Of a DNA stretch of 23,614 nucleotides, positions 1,586-12,769 are shown one piece after another. Numbering within the stretch: position 1 is the stretch's first letter; the number at the start of each line of letters is the position of its first letter. Location of the stretch: NCBI RefSeq assembly GCF_003334315.1, contig NZ_QOWR01000066.1. One strand, written 5' to 3'. The stretch is from Escherichia coli. GTDB lineage: Bacteria > Pseudomonadota > Gammaproteobacteria > Enterobacterales > Enterobacteriaceae. The translations under genes and the position numbers were made by a program. The notes beneath the pieces are model-generated. The model was not told where the DNA came from. It saw only the letters and a list, made by a program, of their open reading frames with translations, and made no database searches.

Positions 1586-3256
1586 ATGGATAATGCAGAA
1601 CTCGCCATTGGTATCGATCTCGGTACTACCAATAGTTTAATTGCCGTCTGGAAAGACGGTGCCGCGCAATTAATTCCAAATAAGTTCGGTGAATATTTAA
1701 CACCATCCATAATTAGCATGGATGAAAATAATCATATTTTAGTCGGAAAACCGGCTGTATCACGGCGTACTTCGCATCCGGATAAAACGGCAGCGTTATT
1801 TAAACGTGCAATGGGCAGTAATACCAACTGGCGGTTAGGCAGCGACACATTTAACGCGCCAGAACTGTCCTCTTTGGTATTACGCTCATTAAAAGAAGAT
1901 GCCGAAGAATTTCTGCAACGTCCGATTAAAGATGTGGTGATCTCCGTTCCGGCTTATTTCAGCGATGAACAACGCAAGCATACCCGTTTAGCAGCGGAGT
2001 TAGCCGGGTTAAATGCGGTACGCTTAATTAATGAACCCACAGCAGCTGCGATGGCGTATGGCCTGCATACCCAACAAAATACCCGTTCGCTGGTGTTTGA
2101 TCTCGGTGGCGGCACGTTTGACGTTACGGTGCTTGAGTACGCCACGCCGGTGATTGAAGTTCACGCCTCCGCTGGCGACAACTTTCTTGGTGGCGAAGAT
2201 TTTACCCATATGCTGGTCGATGAGGTTTTAAAACGCGCGGATGTCGCCAGGACCACGCTTAACGAGAGTGAACTGGCAGCCTTGTACGCCTGTGTGGAAG
2301 CGGCAAAATGTAGCAATCAATCGCCATTGCACATTCGCTGGCAGTATCAGGAAGAAACGCGGGAATGCGAATTTTACGAGAACGAACTGGAAGATTTGTG
2401 GTTGCCGCTGCTCAATCGCTTGCGAGTGCCGATTGAACAGGCGTTGCGCGATGCGCGTCTGAAGCCGAGTCAAATCGACAGTCTGGTGCTGGTTGGCGGC
2501 GCGTCACAAATGCCGCTGGTGCAGCGAATCGCCGTGCGTCTGTTTGGCAAATTACCGTATCAAAGTTACGATCCGAGCACCATTGTCGCGCTGGGCGCAG
2601 CAATCCAGGCCGCCTGCCGCTTACGCAGTGAAGATATTGAAGAGGTAATCCTCACTGATATTTGCCCTTACTCGTTGGGCGTTGAAGTTAACCGCCAGGG
2701 CGTTTCCGGCATTTTCTCGCCGATTATTGAACGAAACACCACTGTGCCCGTGTCGCGTGTAGAAACTTATTCAACCATGCACCCGGAACAGGATTCAATT
2801 ACGGTTAACGTCTATCAGGGAGAAAACCACAAAGTTAAAAACAACATTCTGGTGGAATCCTTCGATGTGCCGTTGAAGAAAACCGGGGCTTATCAGTCGA
2901 TTGATATTCGCTTTAGTTATGATATCAACGGGTTGCTTGAAGTTGACGTGCTTCTGGAAGACGGCAGCGTTAAGTCCAGAGTGATTAACCACAGCCCGGT
3001 AACATTGAGCGCGCAGCAGATTGAAGAGAGTCGGACGCGGTTATCCGCATTGAAAATTTATCCGCGCGATATGCTCATCAATCGCACCTTTAAAGCCAAA
3101 CTGGAAGAGTTGTGGGCGCGGGCGCTGGGTGACGAGCGAGAAGAGATCGGCCGGGTGATCACCGATTTTGATGCGGCGTTGCAGTCAAACGATATGGCCC
3201 GCGTGGATGAAGTTCGGCGGCGGGCGAGCGATTATTTAGCCATTGAGATCCCATAA
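1586..3256 (+). CDS. hscC: Hsp70-family chaperone HscC (Hsc62)
   Basis: 556-aa ORF with Hsp70 signatures: IGIDLGTTNS near the N-terminus, VFDLGGGTFDVTVL, and LVLVGGASQMP. Length and N-terminus MDNAELAIGIDLGTTNSLIAVW match recalled HscC. Confidence 0.9.
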   Translation: MDNAELAIGIDLGTTNSLIAVWKDGAAQLIPNKFGEYLTPSIISMDENNHILVGKPAVSRRTSHPDKTAALFKRAMGSNTNWRLGSDTFNAPELSSLVLRSLKEDAEEFLQRPIKDVVISVPAYFSDEQRKHTRLAAELAGLNAVRLINEPTAAAMAYGLHTQQNTRSLVFDLGGGTFDVTVLEYATPVIEVHASAGDNFLGGEDFTHMLVDEVLKRADVARTTLNESELAALYACVEAAKCSNQSPLHIRWQYQEETRECEFYENELEDLWLPLLNRLRVPIEQALRDARLKPSQIDSLVLVGGASQMPLVQRIAVRLFGKLPYQSYDPSTIVALGAAIQAACRLRSEDIEEVILTDICPYSLGVEVNRQGVSGIFSPIIERNTTVPVSRVETYSTMHPEQDSITVNVYQGENHKVKNNILVESFDVPLKKTGAYQSIDIRFSYDINGLLEVDVLLEDGSVKSRVINHSPVTLSAQQIEESRTRLSALKIYPRDMLINRTFKAKLEELWARALGDEREEIGRVITDFDAALQSNDMARVDEVRRRASDYLAIEIP

Positions 3257-3315: not shown

Positions 3316-4758
3316 TCAGCTAAACAACATCGCGATTTTGCCGAGAGCATAACCTATCACCAGCACCGTTAAACTGATTTTGATAATGCTGGTAATGCTC
3401 TGTGGTTTTTCACCCTCATCATTTTTTTCTTCATGATTTTCAGGTGTTGGCTCATCGACATCTTCATCCTCCGGCTCGAGTTTCACTTTCGTCAAAAGCA
3501 TCCGGGTGACAATGGCCTCTAATTCTCCGCCTTCCAGCCTTGTATTAAGACGGGCCAGCATCTCTTGTTTCGGAAACGCTTCAAGTACTACCTGTTCCGC
3601 TACCCGATACAAATCCAGGAACGGTGAATCTTGCTCTGTCTCGCTACCGACTCTCGATTTCCACCACGCCCATGCTTTGCGCTTGAAGAATAACGACTCA
3701 ATAAACGATTGACCTAACGGCGATAATTTTCCGCTATGTAAAATCTCCGCCCATAACAGCCGCGTCCGGGCGCTCTCACCAGGAACATATTTCAGCGGTT
3801 GACCTTGCGCATCTACCATGCTCCGCGCTTCGATAACCATCACTAATAACGCGAAATAATCCGGGCAATGACGCTTGCTCCACTGCAACAACAAATTATC
3901 AGCTTGTGTAGATGGGTAACTTTCCCAGTACGCGCAGAGATCGGCAAGCAGGCTTTCCCCCTCGCCGCAGTACAAACGTTGTGCACACAAGTAATACCGG
4001 GCATCTTCGCTTTCTGGTTCTTCCGTTTGCCACTGTTGAGCGACAGGAATGAGTTCCGCCATACCTGTTTGCACCGAGCTGTACCAGCGCAACAGTTTGC
4101 GATGTAACTTTGCATCATCAGGAATTAACCACGGACCTTCCATCGCCAAAAACGCAGTGACATAGTCAGGATGGTAACGGCAGCAACGTTCCAGCGCGAA
4201 GTAATACTCAACAGTCTGGTTCTGCAACGCAATGGGATATTCCAGAAGGCTAAGGAAATCGAAACAATCACCAGCCTGAATGGCCTCAAGAAAAGCCTCC
4301 CTTTCTTCCTCATCCATTCCTTCGCTGTCATTAAATGAATGCCAGTTCAAACGCTCTGCCAGCAAAGAAGCACAATTTAATGAAAGATATCGCGCTTCTA
4401 TGGCGATTGCACACAGCGGCCAGCGTAATTGATCGACATCCTCCATGTTCCAGGTATTTAATTGCTGAATAAATTTCTGCCAGGCGGAAGGCTGAAAACG
4501 ATCACTTTCTGAATCCAGTAATGTCCTGAATGCACGTAGTATTTCATGTTCAGCGGCAGCATCTTTTTCTTCATCATCTGCTTCCTCGACAGGATTTACC
4601 GCCAGTCGCAGGGCCTCTTCATAGGCCTGGCGTAATGCTTTAAACCCTTGCGGATCGGTTTCGGGATGACACAACGGTAAGCGAGCAAGATAAGCCTGGC
4701 GGATAATGTCTATTTGCGTCGTGCTTTCAATTTCGAGGATTTGCCAACATGTTTTCAT
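3316..4758 (-). CDS. djlC: J-domain (DnaJ-like) C-terminally membrane-anchored protein DjlC, putative HscC co-chaperone
   Basis: 480-aa ORF. N-terminus [50 protein letters not shown] aligns to J-domain helices II/III with HPE in place of HPD. C-terminus ...[26 protein letters not shown] is a hydrophobic tail anchor. Its start overlaps the ybeU stop (ATGA). Confidence 0.85.
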
Positions 4759-5462
4759 AGGTCGCTCACATCCTTAAGCGTTACCGGGCATTCAGACTGG
4801 ACAGTTAATGGCTGCCAGGGAAGCGTGGCATAGAAACGATCGCTTCCCGCTGCCAGCTCTTCGAACATACGACTCCCGGCGCTATCGTATTTGTACAGGG
4901 TTAGCGCCTCGCGTAGCGAAGTGTTGTCTTCGCACTGAGAAGATTGCCAGTAGAGACGTCCTAACGAATAGGCGGAAAAATAGTGCATCCAGCTGTGATA
5001 GTAATGGTGAGCTCGTACATAGACGCGCGATTGCAGCCATAAACTCTCTTCTTCCGTCAGCCACTTGTTGAGCACACCGACCCGTGACAGAAACCCCATT
5101 CGAACATAATCCCAGGCTTTGATTCCCCCTTCCCCACAGCACATAGCGGTTTGGGCAACGAATTGGGTATAAATCAACCCTCTCTCCGAGCCACCAGCAA
5201 TTAATGCTTTCCACTCTTCAGGGGAAGAGCGATGCCATGTCAGATATAAGCCAGCTAAATCATTGGCATGACCATCATCAGTCATCTGATAAATAGTCTG
5301 AATTAAATCATCACGATTATTTATTCCCCAGGATGATGAGAGCTCGAATTCTTTTATCCCAGTATACATTTTTGGCGAGTCATGCGCGGGTTTGCAACCC
5401 TGATTAAGTATTTCCATGGGCGCAGAAAGCGCAAAAAGAAGATATTGTTCTTCCTTATTCAT
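4755..5462 (-). CDS. ybeU: DUF1266-like protein YbeU (function unknown), first gene of a ybeU-djlC operon
   Basis: 235-aa ORF, a clear paralog of the ybeR product at 7552..8259 (shared blocks ...[20 protein letters not shown]...). AAGGGA Shine-Dalgarno upstream; stop overlaps the djlC start. Confidence 0.85.
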
Positions 5463-5563
5463 TTGTTAATAATCCCTTAAGTGCATTAACTGACTACTTT
5501 TTTATTATTGATGAGTATAAACTTGACGCTTTCAAAATAAAAAGAAAATCGAAGCATTCACAC

Positions 5564-6118
5564 ATGAATAAAAAATTAATGTATATATTCGCAATTTTTA
5601 TAGTTGCAGCAATTACCTGTATTAGCCAACCCAAGAAAACGACGTTGCGTGATAAAGCCATGGTGAATTATGCCTTTGATTATTTAAGCTCACCGGGCAG
5701 TCTTCCATTCACCACGGCAGCCACGGAGCTTTCCGCGATTCATGGTCACTCAACGTCGCAATATCGCCTTGGAGAATTTTATCTTCATGGTAGCGACGGT
5801 AAACCACTGGATTATACACAGGCGAGATACTGGTATGAGCAATCAGCGGAACAGGAAAATCCACGCGCGCAAAGTAAACTGGGGTGGATCTACCTCAAAG
5901 GTCTGGGGGTCAAACCCGACACCCGTAAAGCAATTCTCTGGTATAAGGAAGCAGCTGAACAAGGGTATGCTCATGCTCAATATACTTTAGGTTTGATCTA
6001 CAGAAATGGCTCAGGTATTAATGTTAACCATTATGAATCTCAAAAATGGTTAAAACTGGCCGCCAAACAACATTACAAAAATGCGGAAAGATTACTTGCC
6101 GGGCTTCCCGCACATTAA
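5564..6118 (+). CDS. ybeT: Sel1-repeat protein YbeT with N-terminal hydrophobic signal/anchor
   Basis: 184-aa ORF. N-terminus [22 protein letters not shown] is hydrophobic. Repeated Sel1-like units are visible ([50 protein letters not shown]...). Transcribed divergently from ybeU. Confidence 0.85.
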
Positions 6119-6127
6119 CGTCGACTG

Positions 6128-7555
6128 TCACCCGAACAGATGGAGTATTTTCCCTATCAAACCAGCAAAGATAAAAATATAGAAAATAATTTTAATGATG
6201 CCCAGACAGCCTGGCCCACCATCGTCAACGGGCATTGGCTGCGGTTGCGGCTCCGGTTCAACAGTTTGCTTCTCGGTAAAATTCGCCGCCTGAATTAATA
6301 ATCGACGAATAATTAATGCTTCCAGTGGACAACGATTTTCTGCATCAAGGCGGCTCACAATCGGCATTAATGATTCTTCTGTAGGTTGGCAGGCCTGCAC
6401 TAATTGTTTGGCAACTAGATATAATGGCCATAAGGTATGTTCTGTATCACGCGTGAGTGAGATCCGCGGCTTACGTCCTTTGTGCAAAACCATCTCGACC
6501 AGTGAACGCCCCAGCGCAGAGAGTTTTTCATCGCTGAGTATTTCGTATAAATGAAAACGCGTACGGGCGCTGTCGCCGGGGACATAAAGTAGCGGTTTTC
6601 CCTGATCGTTAACCAGATCACGCGCTTCAATCATCATCACCAGTAATGGGTAATAATCGACCCGATGCTGACGGCATCATTGCAACATTAAAGCATCCGC
6701 CTGGGTGGAGGGATACTCGCGCCAGTAGTCACAAAGTTCTGCCAACAGGCTTTCGCCTTCTCCACAATAGACGCGTTGCGCGTATTCATAATAAGGCGCA
6801 TCTTCATTATCAGGTTCAGTTTCCCGCCATGACTGGGCGTAATCCAGAAGTTCGGGGATATCCAGGCGACCTGCGCTATACCAGCGGAGTAAATTTCTGT
6901 GCAGTTTTGCATCATCGGGGATAATCACTGCGCGATGTTGCGCTAAATACAATGTCAGCCATTGTGGATGCGATGACCAAATCCGAGCGAACATTTGGTA
7001 AAAATCGATGGTGTCATTTTGCACGGCAACGGGCAGATGCAGAATGGTCTGGAAGTTAAAAACATTCCCCTTCGCAATGGCATATAAAAAGGATTCCAGT
7101 TCTTCTTCGTCTATTTCCCCGGTATTTTCCTCCTGTAACCACCGCAATCTTTCTGCTAATAACACCACGCACTCGAAGGATAAATGGGCAGTGTTCATGG
7201 CGATTGTGCACAGCGACCAGCGTAATTCATCAATCTCCTCCATCGAGCAATAATTTAATTGCTGAATGAATCGCTGCCAGGCGGAGGGCAGAAAACGTTC
7301 ACTATCAGAGGCAAGTAACGCACGAAAGGCGAGCAGAATTTCATGTTCTGCTACCTCATATTCTTCTGGTTGCCAAACAGATTTAGCAGGCGACTGCGCA
7401 ATCCGTAGCGCCTCCTCATACGCCTGACGAAGTTGTTTAAAACCCTGCGGATCGGTTTCTGGATGAAAGGACGGTAACAGCGCCAGATAAGCGCGGCGGA
7501 TAATATCGACGTCAGTCGTTTCCTCTATATCGAGGATCTTCCAGCAATTTTTCAT
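6128..7555 (-). pseudogene. djlB: djlB, J-domain membrane protein paralogous to DjlC, interrupted by a single in-frame TGA
   Basis: ORFs 6677..7555 (292 aa, [39 protein letters not shown]...) and 6128..6640 (170 aa) are in the same frame, separated only by TGA at 6677-6679 (minus strand). Alignment with DjlC (…[27 protein letters not shown]…) against DjlB (…[26 protein letters not shown]…) places the stop where DjlC has Trp (TGG). Confidence 0.8.
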
Positions 7556-8259
7556 AGGTCGCTCATATCCTTAAGCGTTTCCGGGCATGCAGAATAGTAA
7601 GCCAATGGTTGCCAGGACAAGGTAGGGTAATACGCATCATCACTGGCAAATAATTGATAAAACATATCATTGCTGGAATCGTCGTATTCTTTACGCGCTA
7701 AGAATTCGCGTAATAAAGGCAGATGATCATCTTCGGGAGACTGCCAATATTGCCGACCAAAGGTATAACCGGCAAAGTATTGCCGCCAGTTACTATAATA
7801 ACGTAGAGCCCGTAGATGAATGCGCGACTGGATCCATAGACTTTCTTCTTCGCTCAACCAGTTATTAAGTACGCCCATTCGGCTTAAAAAACCCATCCGG
7901 ACATAATCCCAGGCTTTGATTCCCCCTTCGCCACAGCATTCGGCGGTGCTGGCGACAAATTGCGCATAAGCCTGACCTTGCTCATTTAGTTCAGCAAGAT
8001 AGTCACGCCATTCACATGGCGAATAACGAAACCAGCGGTGATAAAACCCTGCCAACCGAGCGGCATGACCGTTATCGATCATTCGGTGAATTGTGCGCAG
8101 CAGGTCATCACGGTCATCAATTCCCCATGAGGAAGAAAGGTCAAAAAAGCATGTACCTAAATACATTTTGGGTGATGAATGCGAAGGTAAACAGCATTCA
8201 TTGCGTATTTCCATCGGAGTGGAAAGTGCAAACAATATTTTTTGCGACTCCATGTCCAT
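7552..8259 (-). CDS. ybeR: DUF1266-like protein YbeR (paralog of YbeU), first gene of a ybeR-djlB operon
   Basis: 235-aa ORF, colinear with YbeU ([23 protein letters not shown]... vs [23 protein letters not shown]...). Its stop overlaps the djlB start (ATGA). Confidence 0.85.
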
Positions 8260-8416
8260 ATAATTTATCCTTAAATATTCATTAAATGAATATTAGCCGC
8301 ATTGCGAGGCTCGTTTATTTATACTTTTCTGACGCGACATAATACGCATAAAATAAGGCTTACGCAAAAATGGAACACATAAAAATATAATATGTTTTAT
8401 CTGCAACCATAAGGAA

Positions 8417-9400
8417 ATGATAATGATTTTCACGTCAAGTTGCTGCGATAATTTATCAATAGATGAGATTATCGAACGTGCTGAAAAAGGCGATTGCGAG
8501 GCTCAATATATTGTTGGGTTTTATTATAATCGCGATAGCGCAATTGATTCTCCGGACGACGAAAAAGCCTTTTACTGGCTGAAGCTGGCCGCTGAGCAAG
8601 GTCATTGTGAAGCACAGTATTCCTTAGGGCAAAAGTATACCGAGGATAAAAGCCGTCATAAAGATAATGAGCAAGCCATCTTCTGGCTGAAAAAAGCTGC
8701 CCTACAAGGCCATACTTTCGCTTCCAACGCCCTTGGCTGGACACTGGATCGTGGAGAAGCCCCCAATTATAAAGAAGCGGTTGTCTGGTATCAGATAGCC
8801 GCGGAGAGCGGAATGTCTTATGCGCAAAATAATCTTGGGTGGATGTACAGAAATGGCAACGGAGTCGCAAAAGACTATGCGCTGGCATTTTTCTGGTACA
8901 AACAAGCTGCATTACAAGGCCATAGTGACGCGCAAAACAATCTGGCCGATCTTTATGAAGACGGAAAAGGCGTTGCTCAAAACAAGACACTCGCCGCATT
9001 CTGGTATTTGAAAAGCGCACAGCAGGGTAATCGGCACGCCCAGTTTCAAATTGCATGGGATTATAACGCTGGCGAAGGGGTGGACCAGGACTATAAGCAA
9101 GCGATGTACTGGTATCTGAAGGCTGCCGCTCAGGGGAGCGTCGGCGCTTACGTCAACATCGGTTATATGTATAAACACGGACAAGGCGTTGAGAAAGATT
9201 ATCAGGCTGCCTTTGAATGGTTTACGAAAGCCGCTGAATGCAATGACGCCACTGCCTGGTATAACCTGGCCATTATGTATCACTACGGAGAAGGAAGACC
9301 TGTCGATCTCCGACAGGCTCTCGACCTGTATCGTAAAGTTCAGTCATCCGGAACCAGAGATGTCAGTCAGGAAATTCGTGAGACTGAAGATTTACTGTAG
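8417..9400 (+). CDS. ybeQ: Sel1-repeat (TPR-like) protein YbeQ
   Basis: 327-aa ORF with at least seven tandem ~36-aa Sel1-like units of pattern AQxxLGxxYxxGxGVxxDxxxAxxWYxKAAxQG. Transcribed divergently from ybeR. The exact start is uncertain (ATG at 8417 or 8423). Confidence 0.8.
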   Translation: MIMIFTSSCCDNLSIDEIIERAEKGDCEAQYIVGFYYNRDSAIDSPDDEKAFYWLKLAAEQGHCEAQYSLGQKYTEDKSRHKDNEQAIFWLKKAALQGHTFASNALGWTLDRGEAPNYKEAVVWYQIAAESGMSYAQNNLGWMYRNGNGVAKDYALAFFWYKQAALQGHSDAQNNLADLYEDGKGVAQNKTLAAFWYLKSAQQGNRHAQFQIAWDYNAGEGVDQDYKQAMYWYLKAAAQGSVGAYVNIGYMYKHGQGVEKDYQAAFEWFTKAAECNDATAWYNLAIMYHYGEGRPVDLRQALDLYRKVQSSGTRDVSQEIRETEDLL

Positions 9401-10186: not shown

Positions 10187-12769
10187 ATGCAAGAGCAATA
10201 CCGCCCGGAAGAGATAGAATCCAAAGTACAGCTTCATTGGGATGAGAAGCGCACATTTGAAGTAACCGAAGACGAGAGCAAAGAGAAGTATTACTGCCTG
10301 TCTATGCTTCCCTATCCTTCTGGTCGACTACACATGGGCCACGTACGTAACTACACCATCGGTGACGTGATCGCCCGCTACCAGCGTATGCTGGGCAAAA
10401 ACGTCCTGCAGCCGATCGGCTGGGACGCGTTTGGTCTGCCTGCGGAAGGCGCGGCGGTGAAAAACAACACCGCTCCGGCACCGTGGACGTACGACAACAT
10501 CGCGTATATGAAAAACCAGCTCAAAATGCTGGGCTTTGGTTATGACTGGAGCCGCGAGCTGGCAACCTGTACGCCGGAATACTACCGTTGGGAACAGAAA
10601 TTCTTCACCGAGCTGTATAAAAAAGGCCTGGTATATAAGAAGACTTCTGCGGTCAACTGGTGCCCGAACGACCAGACCGTACTGGCGAACGAACAAGTTA
10701 TCGACGGCTGCTGCTGGCGCTGCGATACCAAAGTTGAACGTAAAGAGATCCCGCAGTGGTTTATCAAAATCACTGCTTACGCTGACGAGCTGCTCAACGA
10801 TCTGGATAAACTGGATCACTGGCCAGACACCGTTAAAACCATGCAGCGTAACTGGATCGGTCGTTCCGAAGGCGTGGAGATCACCTTCAACGTTAACGAC
10901 TATGACAACACGCTGACCGTTTACACTACCCGCCCGGACACCTTTATGGGTTGTACCTACCTGGCGGTAGCTGCGGGTCATCCGCTGGCGCAGAAAGCGG
11001 CGGAAAATAATCCTGAACTGGCGGCCTTTATTGACGAATGCCGTAACACCAAAGTTGCCGAAGCTGAAATGGCGACGATGGAGAAAAAAGGCGTCGATAC
11101 TGGCTTTAAAGCTGTTCACCCATTAACGGGCGAAGAAATTCCCGTTTGGGCAGCAAACTTCGTATTGATGGAGTACGGCACGGGCGCAGTTATGGCGGTT
11201 CCGGGTCACGACCAGCGCGACTACGAGTTTGCCTCTAAATACGGCCTGAACATCAAACCGGTTATCCTGGCAGCTGACGGCTCTGAGCCAGATCTTTCTC
11301 AGCAAGCCCTGACTGAAAAAGGCGTGCTGTTCAACTCTGGCGAGTTCAACGGTCTTGACCATGAAGCGGCCTTCAACGCCATCGCCGATAAACTGACTGC
11401 GATGGGCGTTGGCGAGCGTAAAGTGAACTACCGCCTGCGCGACTGGGGTGTTTCTCGTCAGCGTTACTGGGGCGCGCCGATTCCGATGGTGACGCTGGAA
11501 GACGGTACCGTAATGCCGACCCCGGACGACCAGCTGCCGGTGATCCTGCCGGAAGATGTGGTGATGGACGGCATTAACAGCCCGATTAAAGCAGATCCGG
11601 AGTGGGCAAAAACTACCGTTAACGGTATGCCAGCGCTGCGTGAAACCGACACTTTCGACACCTTTATGGAGTCCTCCTGGTACTATGCGCGCTACACTTG
11701 CCCAGAGTACAAAGAAGGTATGCTGGATTCCGAAGCGGCTAACTACTGGCTGCCGGTGGATATCTACATTGGTGGTATTGAACACGCCATTATGCACCTG
11801 CTCTACTTCCGCTTCTTCCACAAACTGATGCGTGATGCAGGCATGGTGAACTCTGACGAACCAGCGAAACAGTTGCTGTGTCAGGGTATGGTGCTGGCAG
11901 ATGCCTTCTACTATGTTGGCGAAAACGGCGAACGTAACTGGGTTTCCCCGGTTGATGCTATCGTTGAACGTGACGAGAAAGGCCGTATCGTGAAAGCGAA
12001 AGATGCGGCAGGCCATGAACTGGTTTATACCGGCATGAGCAAAATGTCCAAGTCGAAGAACAACGGTATCGACCCGCAGGTGATGGTTGAACGTTACGGC
12101 GCGGACACCGTTCGTCTGTTTATGATGTTTGCTTCTCCGGCTGATATGACTCTCGAATGGCAGGAATCCGGTGTGGAAGGGGCTAACCGCTTCCTGAAAC
12201 GTGTCTGGAAACTGGTTTACGAGCACACAGCAAAAGGTGATGTTGCGGCACTGAACGTTGATGCGCTGACTGAAGATCAGAAAGCGCTGCGTCGCGATGT
12301 GCATAAAACTATCGCTAAAGTGACCGATGATATCGGCCGTCGTCAGACCTTCAACACCGCAATTGCGGCGATTATGGAGCTGATGAACAAACTGGCGAAA
12401 GCACCAACCGATGGCGAGCAGGATCGCGCTCTGATGCAGGAAGCGCTGCTGGCCGTTGTCCGTATGCTTAACCCGTTCACCCCGCACATCTGCTTCACGC
12501 TGTGGCAGGAACTGAAAGGCGAAGGCGATATCGACAACGCGCCGTGGCCGGTTGCTGACGAAAAAGCGATGGTGGAAGACTCCACGCTGGTCGTGGTGCA
12601 GGTTAACGGTAAAGTCCGTGCCAAAATCACCGTTCCGGTGGACGCAACGGAAGAACAGGTTCGCGAACGTGCTGGCCAGGAACATCTGGTAGCAAAATAT
12701 CTTGATGGCGTTACTGTACGTAAAGTGATTTACGTACCAGGTAAACTCCTCAATCTGGTCGTTGGCTAA
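10187..12769 (+). CDS. leuS: Leucyl-tRNA synthetase
   Basis: Contains the class I aaRS HIGH motif ([15 protein letters not shown]) and KMSKS ([12 protein letters not shown]). Starting at ATG 10187 ([15 protein letters not shown]...) gives 860 aa, the canonical LeuS length. The ORF track's 10046 start is an in-frame upstream extension. Confidence 0.95.

Follow-up and report, generated by a model that had tools for sequence, protein, structure and literature searches.

The tail anchoring of the Escherichia coli J-proteins DjlC and DjlB, and the placement of their Hsp70 partner HscC at the membrane, are already known from published work. By the experiments of Peschke et al. 2018, as these are summarised in PMC6794478, DjlC is a bona fide tail-anchored inner-membrane protein. 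According to the same summary, its insertion needs the signal recognition particle (SRP), FtsY, YidC and DnaK, and its C-terminal segment cross-links to YidC (PMC6794478). A 2021 review describes both DjlB and DjlC as tail-anchored, which places HscC at the membrane (PMC8215388). In its summary of Kluck 2002, the review names DjlC as the only stimulator of the HscC ATPase. It further notes that Cd2+ sensitivity rises when hscC, or djlB and djlC together, are lost (PMC8215388). Here, we analyzed this locus, together with the neighboring gene ybeT, in a 23,614-nucleotide stretch of an E. coli genome (assembly GCF_003334315.1, contig NZ_QOWR01000066.1), referred to below as the window.

The open reading frames (ORFs) of the window and comparison with complete E. 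coli genomes identify the stretch as E. coli chromosome in the order gltL'-rihA-hscC-djlC-ybeU-ybeT-djlB-ybeR-ybeQ-ybeL-leuS-lptE and onward. Positions 3316-8259 span djlC through ybeR. The identity with K-12 MG1655 is 99.8% over 13.4 kb, which include rihA to ybeQ, with 17 substitutions and one 9-nt gap, and the gene identities agree with those that RefSeq gives for the locus in K-12 and CP53. The window thus carries the well-studied E. coli hscC–djlC–djlB chaperone locus, and the names DjlC, DjlB, YbeT and HscC, proposed beforehand by a reading of the sequence without database searches, are correct by the ORFs and the K-12 comparison.

Together, our results make it very likely that DjlC is a tail-anchored inner-membrane co-chaperone of the soluble HscC, that DjlB is inactive in this strain, and that YbeT is targeted to the envelope by a segment most like an uncleaved signal anchor. 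The djlC gene (3316-4758, minus strand; assigned by ORF, RefSeq and family profile) encodes a class C J-domain co-chaperone of 480 amino acids. A 9-nt in-frame deletion near 3523, where K-12 has TGCTCATCC, accounts for its length compared with the 483 residues of the K-12 protein. The same 1443-nt djlC allele also occurs in strains CP53 and 14EC001. Translation, Pfam DnaJ and a profile comparison with the PDB place the J domain at residues 1-55 (4594-4758, minus strand). The family profile matches PDB J domains over residues 4-57 (E ~4e-4), and a scan of the single DjlC sequence against a Pfam-A library that preceded the newer PF27158 (DjlB_C_2nd) gave only a weak DnaJ match (E = 0.036). In both J domains HPE replaces the canonical HPD (4660-4668 in DjlC and 7457-7465 in DjlB, both on the minus strand), a tolerated variant and a known peculiarity of DjlB and DjlC (PMC13254874; PMC10410713).

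The C-terminal part of DjlC consists of an acidic linker (residues 425-454; 3397-3486, minus strand; translation and AlphaFold2) and a tail anchor (residues 455-480; 3319-3396, minus strand), the latter supported by hydropathy, an AlphaFold2 helix, homologue conservation and PMC6794478. The linker contains 13 Asp/Glu in 30 residues and has a net charge of -10. As a hydrophobic segment we counted any 19-residue window whose Kyte-Doolittle value is 1.6 or higher. Such windows are restricted to residues 454-480 of the 480 in DjlC, which has neither an N-terminal signal nor a second transmembrane segment and therefore shows the single C-terminal segment of a tail-anchored protein. Among the 21 genes in the window, a C-terminal membrane-type segment is encoded only by djlC and djlB. 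In the AlphaFold2 model (39 homologues, mean predicted local distance difference test (pLDDT) score 80), DjlC is all-alpha over residues 1-424, has pLDDT below 50 at 432-454, and forms a helix at 455-478 that stops two residues before the C-terminus. A Foldseek search of the PDB with this model returned no match below E = 0.04, and its non-significant top hits are mostly helical-repeat (TPR-like) proteins. The tail has a mean hydrophobicity <H> of 0.62 and a hydrophobic moment muH of 0.23. Since 141 of 2000 shuffled DjlC sequences reached the observed maximum window, the meaningful tests are instead the terminal position of the segment and its conservation among homologues.

We examined 91 full-length homologues of DjlB and DjlC, 42-96% identical, that belong to Escherichia, Salmonella, Citrobacter and Enterobacter. 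A hydrophobic window ending at most 8 residues from the C-terminus is present in 85 of the 91, and the hydrophobicity of the tail is retained although the tail sequences differ widely. The tails follow a common pattern, found in 52 of 55 distinct ones: a basic residue, 12-13 uncharged residues, a second basic residue (or Asn-Arg), and then 4-7 residues, that basic residue included, to the C-terminus. The two basic residues of the DjlB and DjlC tails are thus about 14 positions apart. Among 1.84 billion representative proteins, searched with a profile, about 25 long relatives cover the DjlC body, each standing for one 50%-identity cluster, and 24 of these 25 have C-terminal membrane segments. 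They include distant relatives of DjlC that are about 890 amino acids long and carry a polytopic DUF805 domain at the end in place of the single tail anchor. On a metagenome contig (2202-7312), a DUF1266 gene overlaps the gene of such a DUF805-type J-protein, which in turn is convergent with hscC, giving a DUF1266→Djl←HscC triad. Because the tail is kept in 85 of 91 homologues and the DUF805 relatives occur in the same triad, C-terminal membrane attachment is, as judged from sequence, a conserved property of the DjlB/DjlC family, with the type of anchor changing.

The second J-protein gene differs in this strain. The djlB reading frame (6128-7555, minus strand; 475 codons) is a pseudogene here by translation, K-12 comparison and RefSeq. 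A premature TGA occupies codon 293 (6677-6679, minus strand), where K-12 has TGG (Trp) and where RefSeq notes an 'internal stop' in strain CP53. It is the sole base of djlB that differs from K-12, and the exact 61-mer with the TGA is present in 50 of the 3388 complete genomes carrying the region; the change looks like a recent natural inactivation. The J-domain fragment ends at residue 292. The segment coding for the tail anchor (codons 450-475; 6131-6208, minus strand; hydropathy and translation) is downstream of the stop, on an ORF without a J domain, and djlB here no longer encodes J domain and anchor in one polypeptide. Across the full frame, windows of at least 1.6 cover residues 446-475 of 475 and no other part, and the linker, rich in Pro, Gln and Glu, is only mildly acidic (net -4). 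Re-initiation at the GTG past the stop was considered; no Shine-Dalgarno sequence is evident there. DjlB is most likely non-functional in this strain: because the internal TGA makes djlB a pseudogene, a tail-anchored DjlB J-protein is not expected.

These results amend what the sequence-only reading had proposed. It described both J-proteins as ending in hydrophobic tails preceded by acidic linkers. For DjlC, both features are confirmed. For DjlB, the tail is encoded past an in-frame stop that the reading had run through at codon 293, so that the product of this window does not end in it, and the linker is only mildly acidic. The reading further proposed a membrane assembly that recruits HscC. 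The hscC gene (1586-3256, plus strand; ORF, NCBIfam DnaK/HscA-type matches and RefSeq) encodes a specialised Hsp70 of 556 amino acids, which is soluble by hydropathy, with a maximum Kyte-Doolittle window of 1.19 and no hydrophobic segment. Recruitment of HscC to the membrane is inferred. For DjlC, the tail anchor is supported by sequence and by the insertion work as summarised in PMC6794478, and the resulting placement of HscC is already given in PMC8215388. For DjlB the proposal is not supported here, the gene being a pseudogene, and for YbeT it hinges on a membrane side that the sequence leaves undecided.

YbeT (5564-6118, plus strand; 184 amino acids) is a Sel1-repeat protein whose Sel1 domain, at about residues 49-179, is supported by PF08238 on the cluster representative, by a structural model and by PDB matches, with E down to 6e-69 against solved Sel1 proteins. 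As the sequence-only reading stated, the protein begins with a hydrophobic signal or anchor: MNKK is followed by a signal-anchor-like segment at residues 5-21 (5564-5626, plus strand; hydropathy, orthologues and model). Windows of at least 1.6 lie at 2-23, and the segment is kept in full-length orthologues down to 71% identity. In the model, a helix spans residues 3-20, a break follows at 21-27, and the Sel1 domain at 49-179 has pLDDT above 90. We compared YbeT with exported proteins encoded in the same window. Its uncharged run of 17 residues has a mean Kyte-Doolittle value of 2.5, close to the signal anchor of PBP2 (17 residues, 2.8), whereas the cleaved signal peptides of DacA and RlpA reach 1.7-1.8. 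Signal-peptide features include the basic n-region MNKK and candidate -3/-1 sites (VAA|I and CIS|Q), with no helix breaker and no polar c-region; a KK follows 3-4 residues beyond the hydrophobic run. A cleaved Sec (SPase I) signal peptide would be expected to have an h-region of about 7-15 residues, a polar c-region and a mature part that starts free of positive charges. YbeT is thus predicted to be targeted to the envelope, and its N-terminal helix most resembles an uncleaved signal anchor. The lipobox consensus is [LVI][ASTVI][GAS]C. A lipoprotein was rejected, as the AITC around Cys19 is non-canonical, with Ala at -3 outside [LVI] and Thr at -1 outside the consensus. The [GAS]-Cys of LptE (TAGC) and RlpA (LAAC), the latter fitting the full consensus, is absent in YbeT.

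The distribution of ybeT bears on its role. The gene is absent from the otherwise conserved module in Salmonella, Enterobacter and the distant metagenomic relative. The Salmonella module contains HscC, two DUF1266-Djl pairs and a YbeQ-type Sel1 protein that is cytoplasmic, and it lacks ybeT; a Sel1 gene of any kind is missing in Enterobacter and in the distant DUF805-type module. By these gene contents YbeT appears Escherichia-specific and outside the conserved core, and because it is missing from the module in other genera, a role as a core HscC partner is disfavored. Its membership of an HscC-recruiting assembly is speculation. No experiment that localises YbeT was found. In a 2025 preprint, ybeT was among the top hits of transposon-directed insertion-site sequencing (TraDIS) under challenge with phage Arnold, but the Keio strain lacking ybeT showed wild-type behavior (bioRxiv 10.1101/2025.12.01.691526).

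Several observations weigh against a DjlC-based membrane assembly. The uninterrupted core of the tail is only 12-13 residues long with conserved basic residues on either side, below a canonical membrane span, and the additive transfer energy of the DjlC tail is +1.2 kcal/mol, near or slightly above zero on a simple additive scale with the values of Hessa 2005. By sequence alone, this short core and this transfer energy make the DjlC tail a marginal transmembrane segment. As an alternative, the tails of DjlC and DjlB may not cross the bilayer at all and may instead be short anchors of a monotopic or interfacial kind, or serve in oligomerisation. The basic-bracketed pattern conserved in the distinct tails, the short core and the slightly positive transfer energy would all fit this alternative. 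However, the full DjlC helix is predicted by AlphaFold2 to have 24 residues, the high <H> and low muH are typical of a transmembrane rather than an amphipathic helix, the lysines at both ends of the tail can snorkel to the interfaces, and SRP/YidC-dependent insertion with YidC cross-links of the segment is reported in the literature as summarised in PMC6794478. We regard a non-spanning tail as very unlikely. With regard to DjlB, its membrane insertion is experimentally untested according to PMC8215388. It could also be argued that djlB still gives a functional tail-anchored J-protein by UGA read-through, or that the stop is a sequencing error, given that a single base is changed and that the remaining gene is identical to K-12, so that any inactivation would be recent. 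The identical allele in 50 independent complete genomes and the annotated internal stop speak against a sequencing error. In djlB, where no search was aimed at them, neither a selenocysteine signal nor any other recoding signal was seen, and UGA codons are as a rule read through at a basal rate of about a percent or less. An active djlB is thus extremely improbable, and loss of DjlB is the reading we keep. As to the assembly itself, HscC, DjlB and DjlC fell under the detection limit of quantitative proteomics during exponential growth (PMC8215388), and the locus, including ybeT and ybeU-djlC, belongs to the H-NS regulon (PMC5797941). Since the proteins escape detection and the genes are in this regulon, the DjlC-HscC membrane assembly may rarely exist under laboratory conditions.

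For YbeT, the question is which side of the membrane its Sel1 domain faces. It seems rather probable that YbeT faces the periplasm, either as a type II (N-in, C-out) anchor or as a cleaved periplasmic or outer-membrane-associated protein, and is thus apart from the cytosolic HscC. Its layout is that of an export signal, with the basic MNKK, a hydrophobic stretch and the possible VAA|I and CIS|Q cleavage sites; the gene is missing from the conserved HscC module of other genera; and the closest named Sel1 families, MerG, AlgK, MotX and ExoR, are extracytoplasmic. An older K-12 annotation also calls YbeT a 'conserved outer membrane protein' (PMC5797941). The family matches are, however, non-discriminating, as the signal-less YbeQ matches the same families even better, and cleavage and lipidation are disfavored by the lack of a helix breaker and polar c-region and by the AITC that is not a canonical lipobox. 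Positive charges next to a signal sequence disfavor translocation of that side. In E. coli YbeT the N-flank has a net charge of +2 and the 15-residue C-flank one of +3, and this C-flank exceeds every exported control (-2 to +1) as well as its own N-flank, which points away from the periplasm. In an orthologue at 71% identity the balance is opposite (N-flank +3, C-flank +1), favoring N-in, C-out. With near-balanced charges in E. coli and the opposite balance in the orthologue, the positive-inside rule leaves the orientation undecided, and the flanking charges cannot decide whether the Sel1 domain lies in the cytoplasm or in the periplasm. The inverse arrangement, in which YbeT is N-out and C-in and its cytoplasmic Sel1 domain forms an HscC membrane platform with DjlC and the DUF1266 proteins, is somewhat unlikely in our view. 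It would fit the C-flank of E. coli YbeT, the long and strongly hydrophobic run like that of the PBP2 signal anchor, the location of ybeT inside the module and divergent from ybeU, and the paralogue-like neighbor YbeQ, a cytoplasmic Sel1 protein with 36% identity to YbeT over the repeats. On the other hand, it would need two lysines in a 4-residue N-tail to cross the membrane, the charge patterns of orthologues are inconsistent, and ybeT is not conserved with the module beyond Escherichia. A broader proposal is more doubtful still. It holds that obligatory C-terminal tethering defines the HscC J-partner family, in Enterobacteriaceae through a tail of about 13 residues bracketed by basic ones and in distant relatives through polytopic DUF805, always in the arrangement DUF1266→Djl←HscC, and that in Escherichia YbeT joins it as an N-out, C-in cytoplasmic Sel1 adaptor. 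If true, it would describe a three-component, membrane-bound Hsp70 targeting machine with membrane-protein clients; we consider it quite unlikely.

We then propose a model for the DjlC arm of the locus. Of its four parts, DjlC would begin with the N-terminal HPE J domain, continue in an entirely alpha-helical body (about 370 residues) and pass through a disordered, acidic linker (about 25-30 residues) into the helix at 455-478. From the literature as summarised in PMC6794478, DjlC would be made in the cytoplasm and inserted post-translationally by this C-terminal helix. Because the helix inserts after translation, the rest of DjlC would be cytoplasmic. The charge of the linker and its disorder in the AlphaFold2 model suggest that it spaces the body and the J domain off the membrane surface. 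The HPE J domain may then activate the HscC ATPase from the cytoplasmic side, in line with Kluck 2002 as summarised in PMC8215388, and HscC would work on its clients at the inner membrane, on the cytoplasmic face, as also proposed in PMC8215388. DjlB, a 49%-identical paralogue, would follow the same design, with the TGG-to-TGA change at codon 293 parting its J domain from its tail, so that only the DjlC arm would be intact in this strain. The ybeT gene appears to have been inserted between the two DUF1266-Djl gene pairs, and its product would carry a very hydrophobic N-terminal helix of 17 residues.

What is known of HscC function is so far limited to Cd2+ and UV sensitivity. Membrane-tethered J-partners narrow the search for HscC clients to membrane or membrane-proximal proteins, a point already in the literature. 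Our analysis adds that this strain has no intact DjlB and that the anchor is conserved far beyond E. coli in changing form, and it cautions against assuming that YbeT lies on the HscC side of the membrane.

The remaining genes of the module encode soluble proteins. YbeU (4755-5462, minus strand; ORF, RefSeq and hydropathy, with DUF1266 called at the orthologous position) and YbeR (7552-8259, minus strand; ORF, RefSeq and hydropathy) are DUF1266 proteins of 235 amino acids each and are 59% identical. A phmmer search of PDB sequences with YbeU found no solved relative of this DUF1266 protein. The stop codon of ybeU overlaps the start of djlC in an ATGA at 4755-4758, and ybeR and djlB overlap in the same way at 7552-7555. 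On account of these 4-nt overlaps and of the DUF1266-Djl pairing conserved in other genomes, YbeU and YbeR are probably translationally coupled partners of the J-proteins. YbeQ (8417-9400, plus strand; ORF, RefSeq, hydropathy and NCBIfam) is a Sel1-repeat protein of 327 amino acids. It lacks a hydrophobic N-terminus and is predicted to be cytoplasmic, and its Salmonella orthologue is likewise without a signal sequence. None of HscC, YbeU, YbeR and YbeQ has a Kyte-Doolittle window of at least 1.6.

Of 5426 complete E. coli genomes, about 80% carry the locus (4378 have djlC, 4288 have ybeT, and 3709 have at least 80% of djlB) and about 20% lack it. The G+C content is 0.42-0.43 at about 5000-9000, compared with 0.51-0.53 in the flanks. 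Over-expression of SlyA induces ybeT 4.1-fold and ybeU-djlC 2.8-fold (PMC5797941). The identities between DjlB and DjlC (49%) and between YbeU and YbeR (59%) reflect a tandem duplication of the unit [Sel1 gene][DUF1266→Djl]. In other strains (BL12 and ET76), djlB or ybeT is interrupted by IS1. Only 25% of the djlB query aligned in an E. coli B derivative, with 79% identity and within features annotated djlC and ybeR, so that djlB has probably been deleted there. Taken together, the IS1 strains and the E. coli B derivative indicate that the HscC module decays repeatedly in nature. Salmonella has an additional gene of 412 amino acids between hscC and rihA (11250-12488 of the Salmonella locus), with no Pfam match and absent in E. 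coli. A preprint on the RRS element names djlC merely as an insertion site. We also considered a defense-system reading of the module. PADLOC, run on eight module proteins, gave no match for HscC, DjlC, YbeU, DjlB or YbeR and nothing meaningful overall, with only weak matches of the PtuA model to YbeT and YbeQ (E 2e-3 and 1e-4), and this reading was dropped. NCBIfam contained no model for DjlB, DjlC or DUF1266 and gave only generic Sel1 and Hsp70 matches.

In comparison with known systems, the locus is closest to that of K-12, where DjlC (YbeV) and DjlB (YbeS) are alike in genes, HPE J domain, tail anchors and gene order; DjlC here is 3 residues shorter owing to the 9-nt deletion, and djlB is a pseudogene through the TGA at codon 293. 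DjlA is another class C J-protein that tethers Hsp70 activity to the inner membrane. It is listed among the E. coli J-domain proteins in PMC8215388. The architecture of DjlA is the reverse, with an N-terminal anchor, a C-terminal J domain and DnaK as partner, whereas DjlB and DjlC have a C-terminal anchor, an N-terminal J domain and HscC as partner. YbeT, with three to four Sel1 repeats at 49-179, resembles other Sel1-like repeat proteins (E. coli c5321/EsiB, Helicobacter HcpC, SEL1L/Hrd3, MotX and AlgK), and differs from them in being short, with a single N-terminal hydrophobic helix. Like DjlC, together with which they were studied, Flk and SciP have a single C-terminal segment and lack an N-terminal signal, and their post-translational insertion requires SRP, FtsY, YidC and DnaK, according to the summary in PMC6794478. 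The same summary describes the DjlC segment as less hydrophobic than that of Flk (PMC6794478). Unlike Flk and SciP, the DjlB/DjlC family has a conserved 12-13-residue core held between basic residues.

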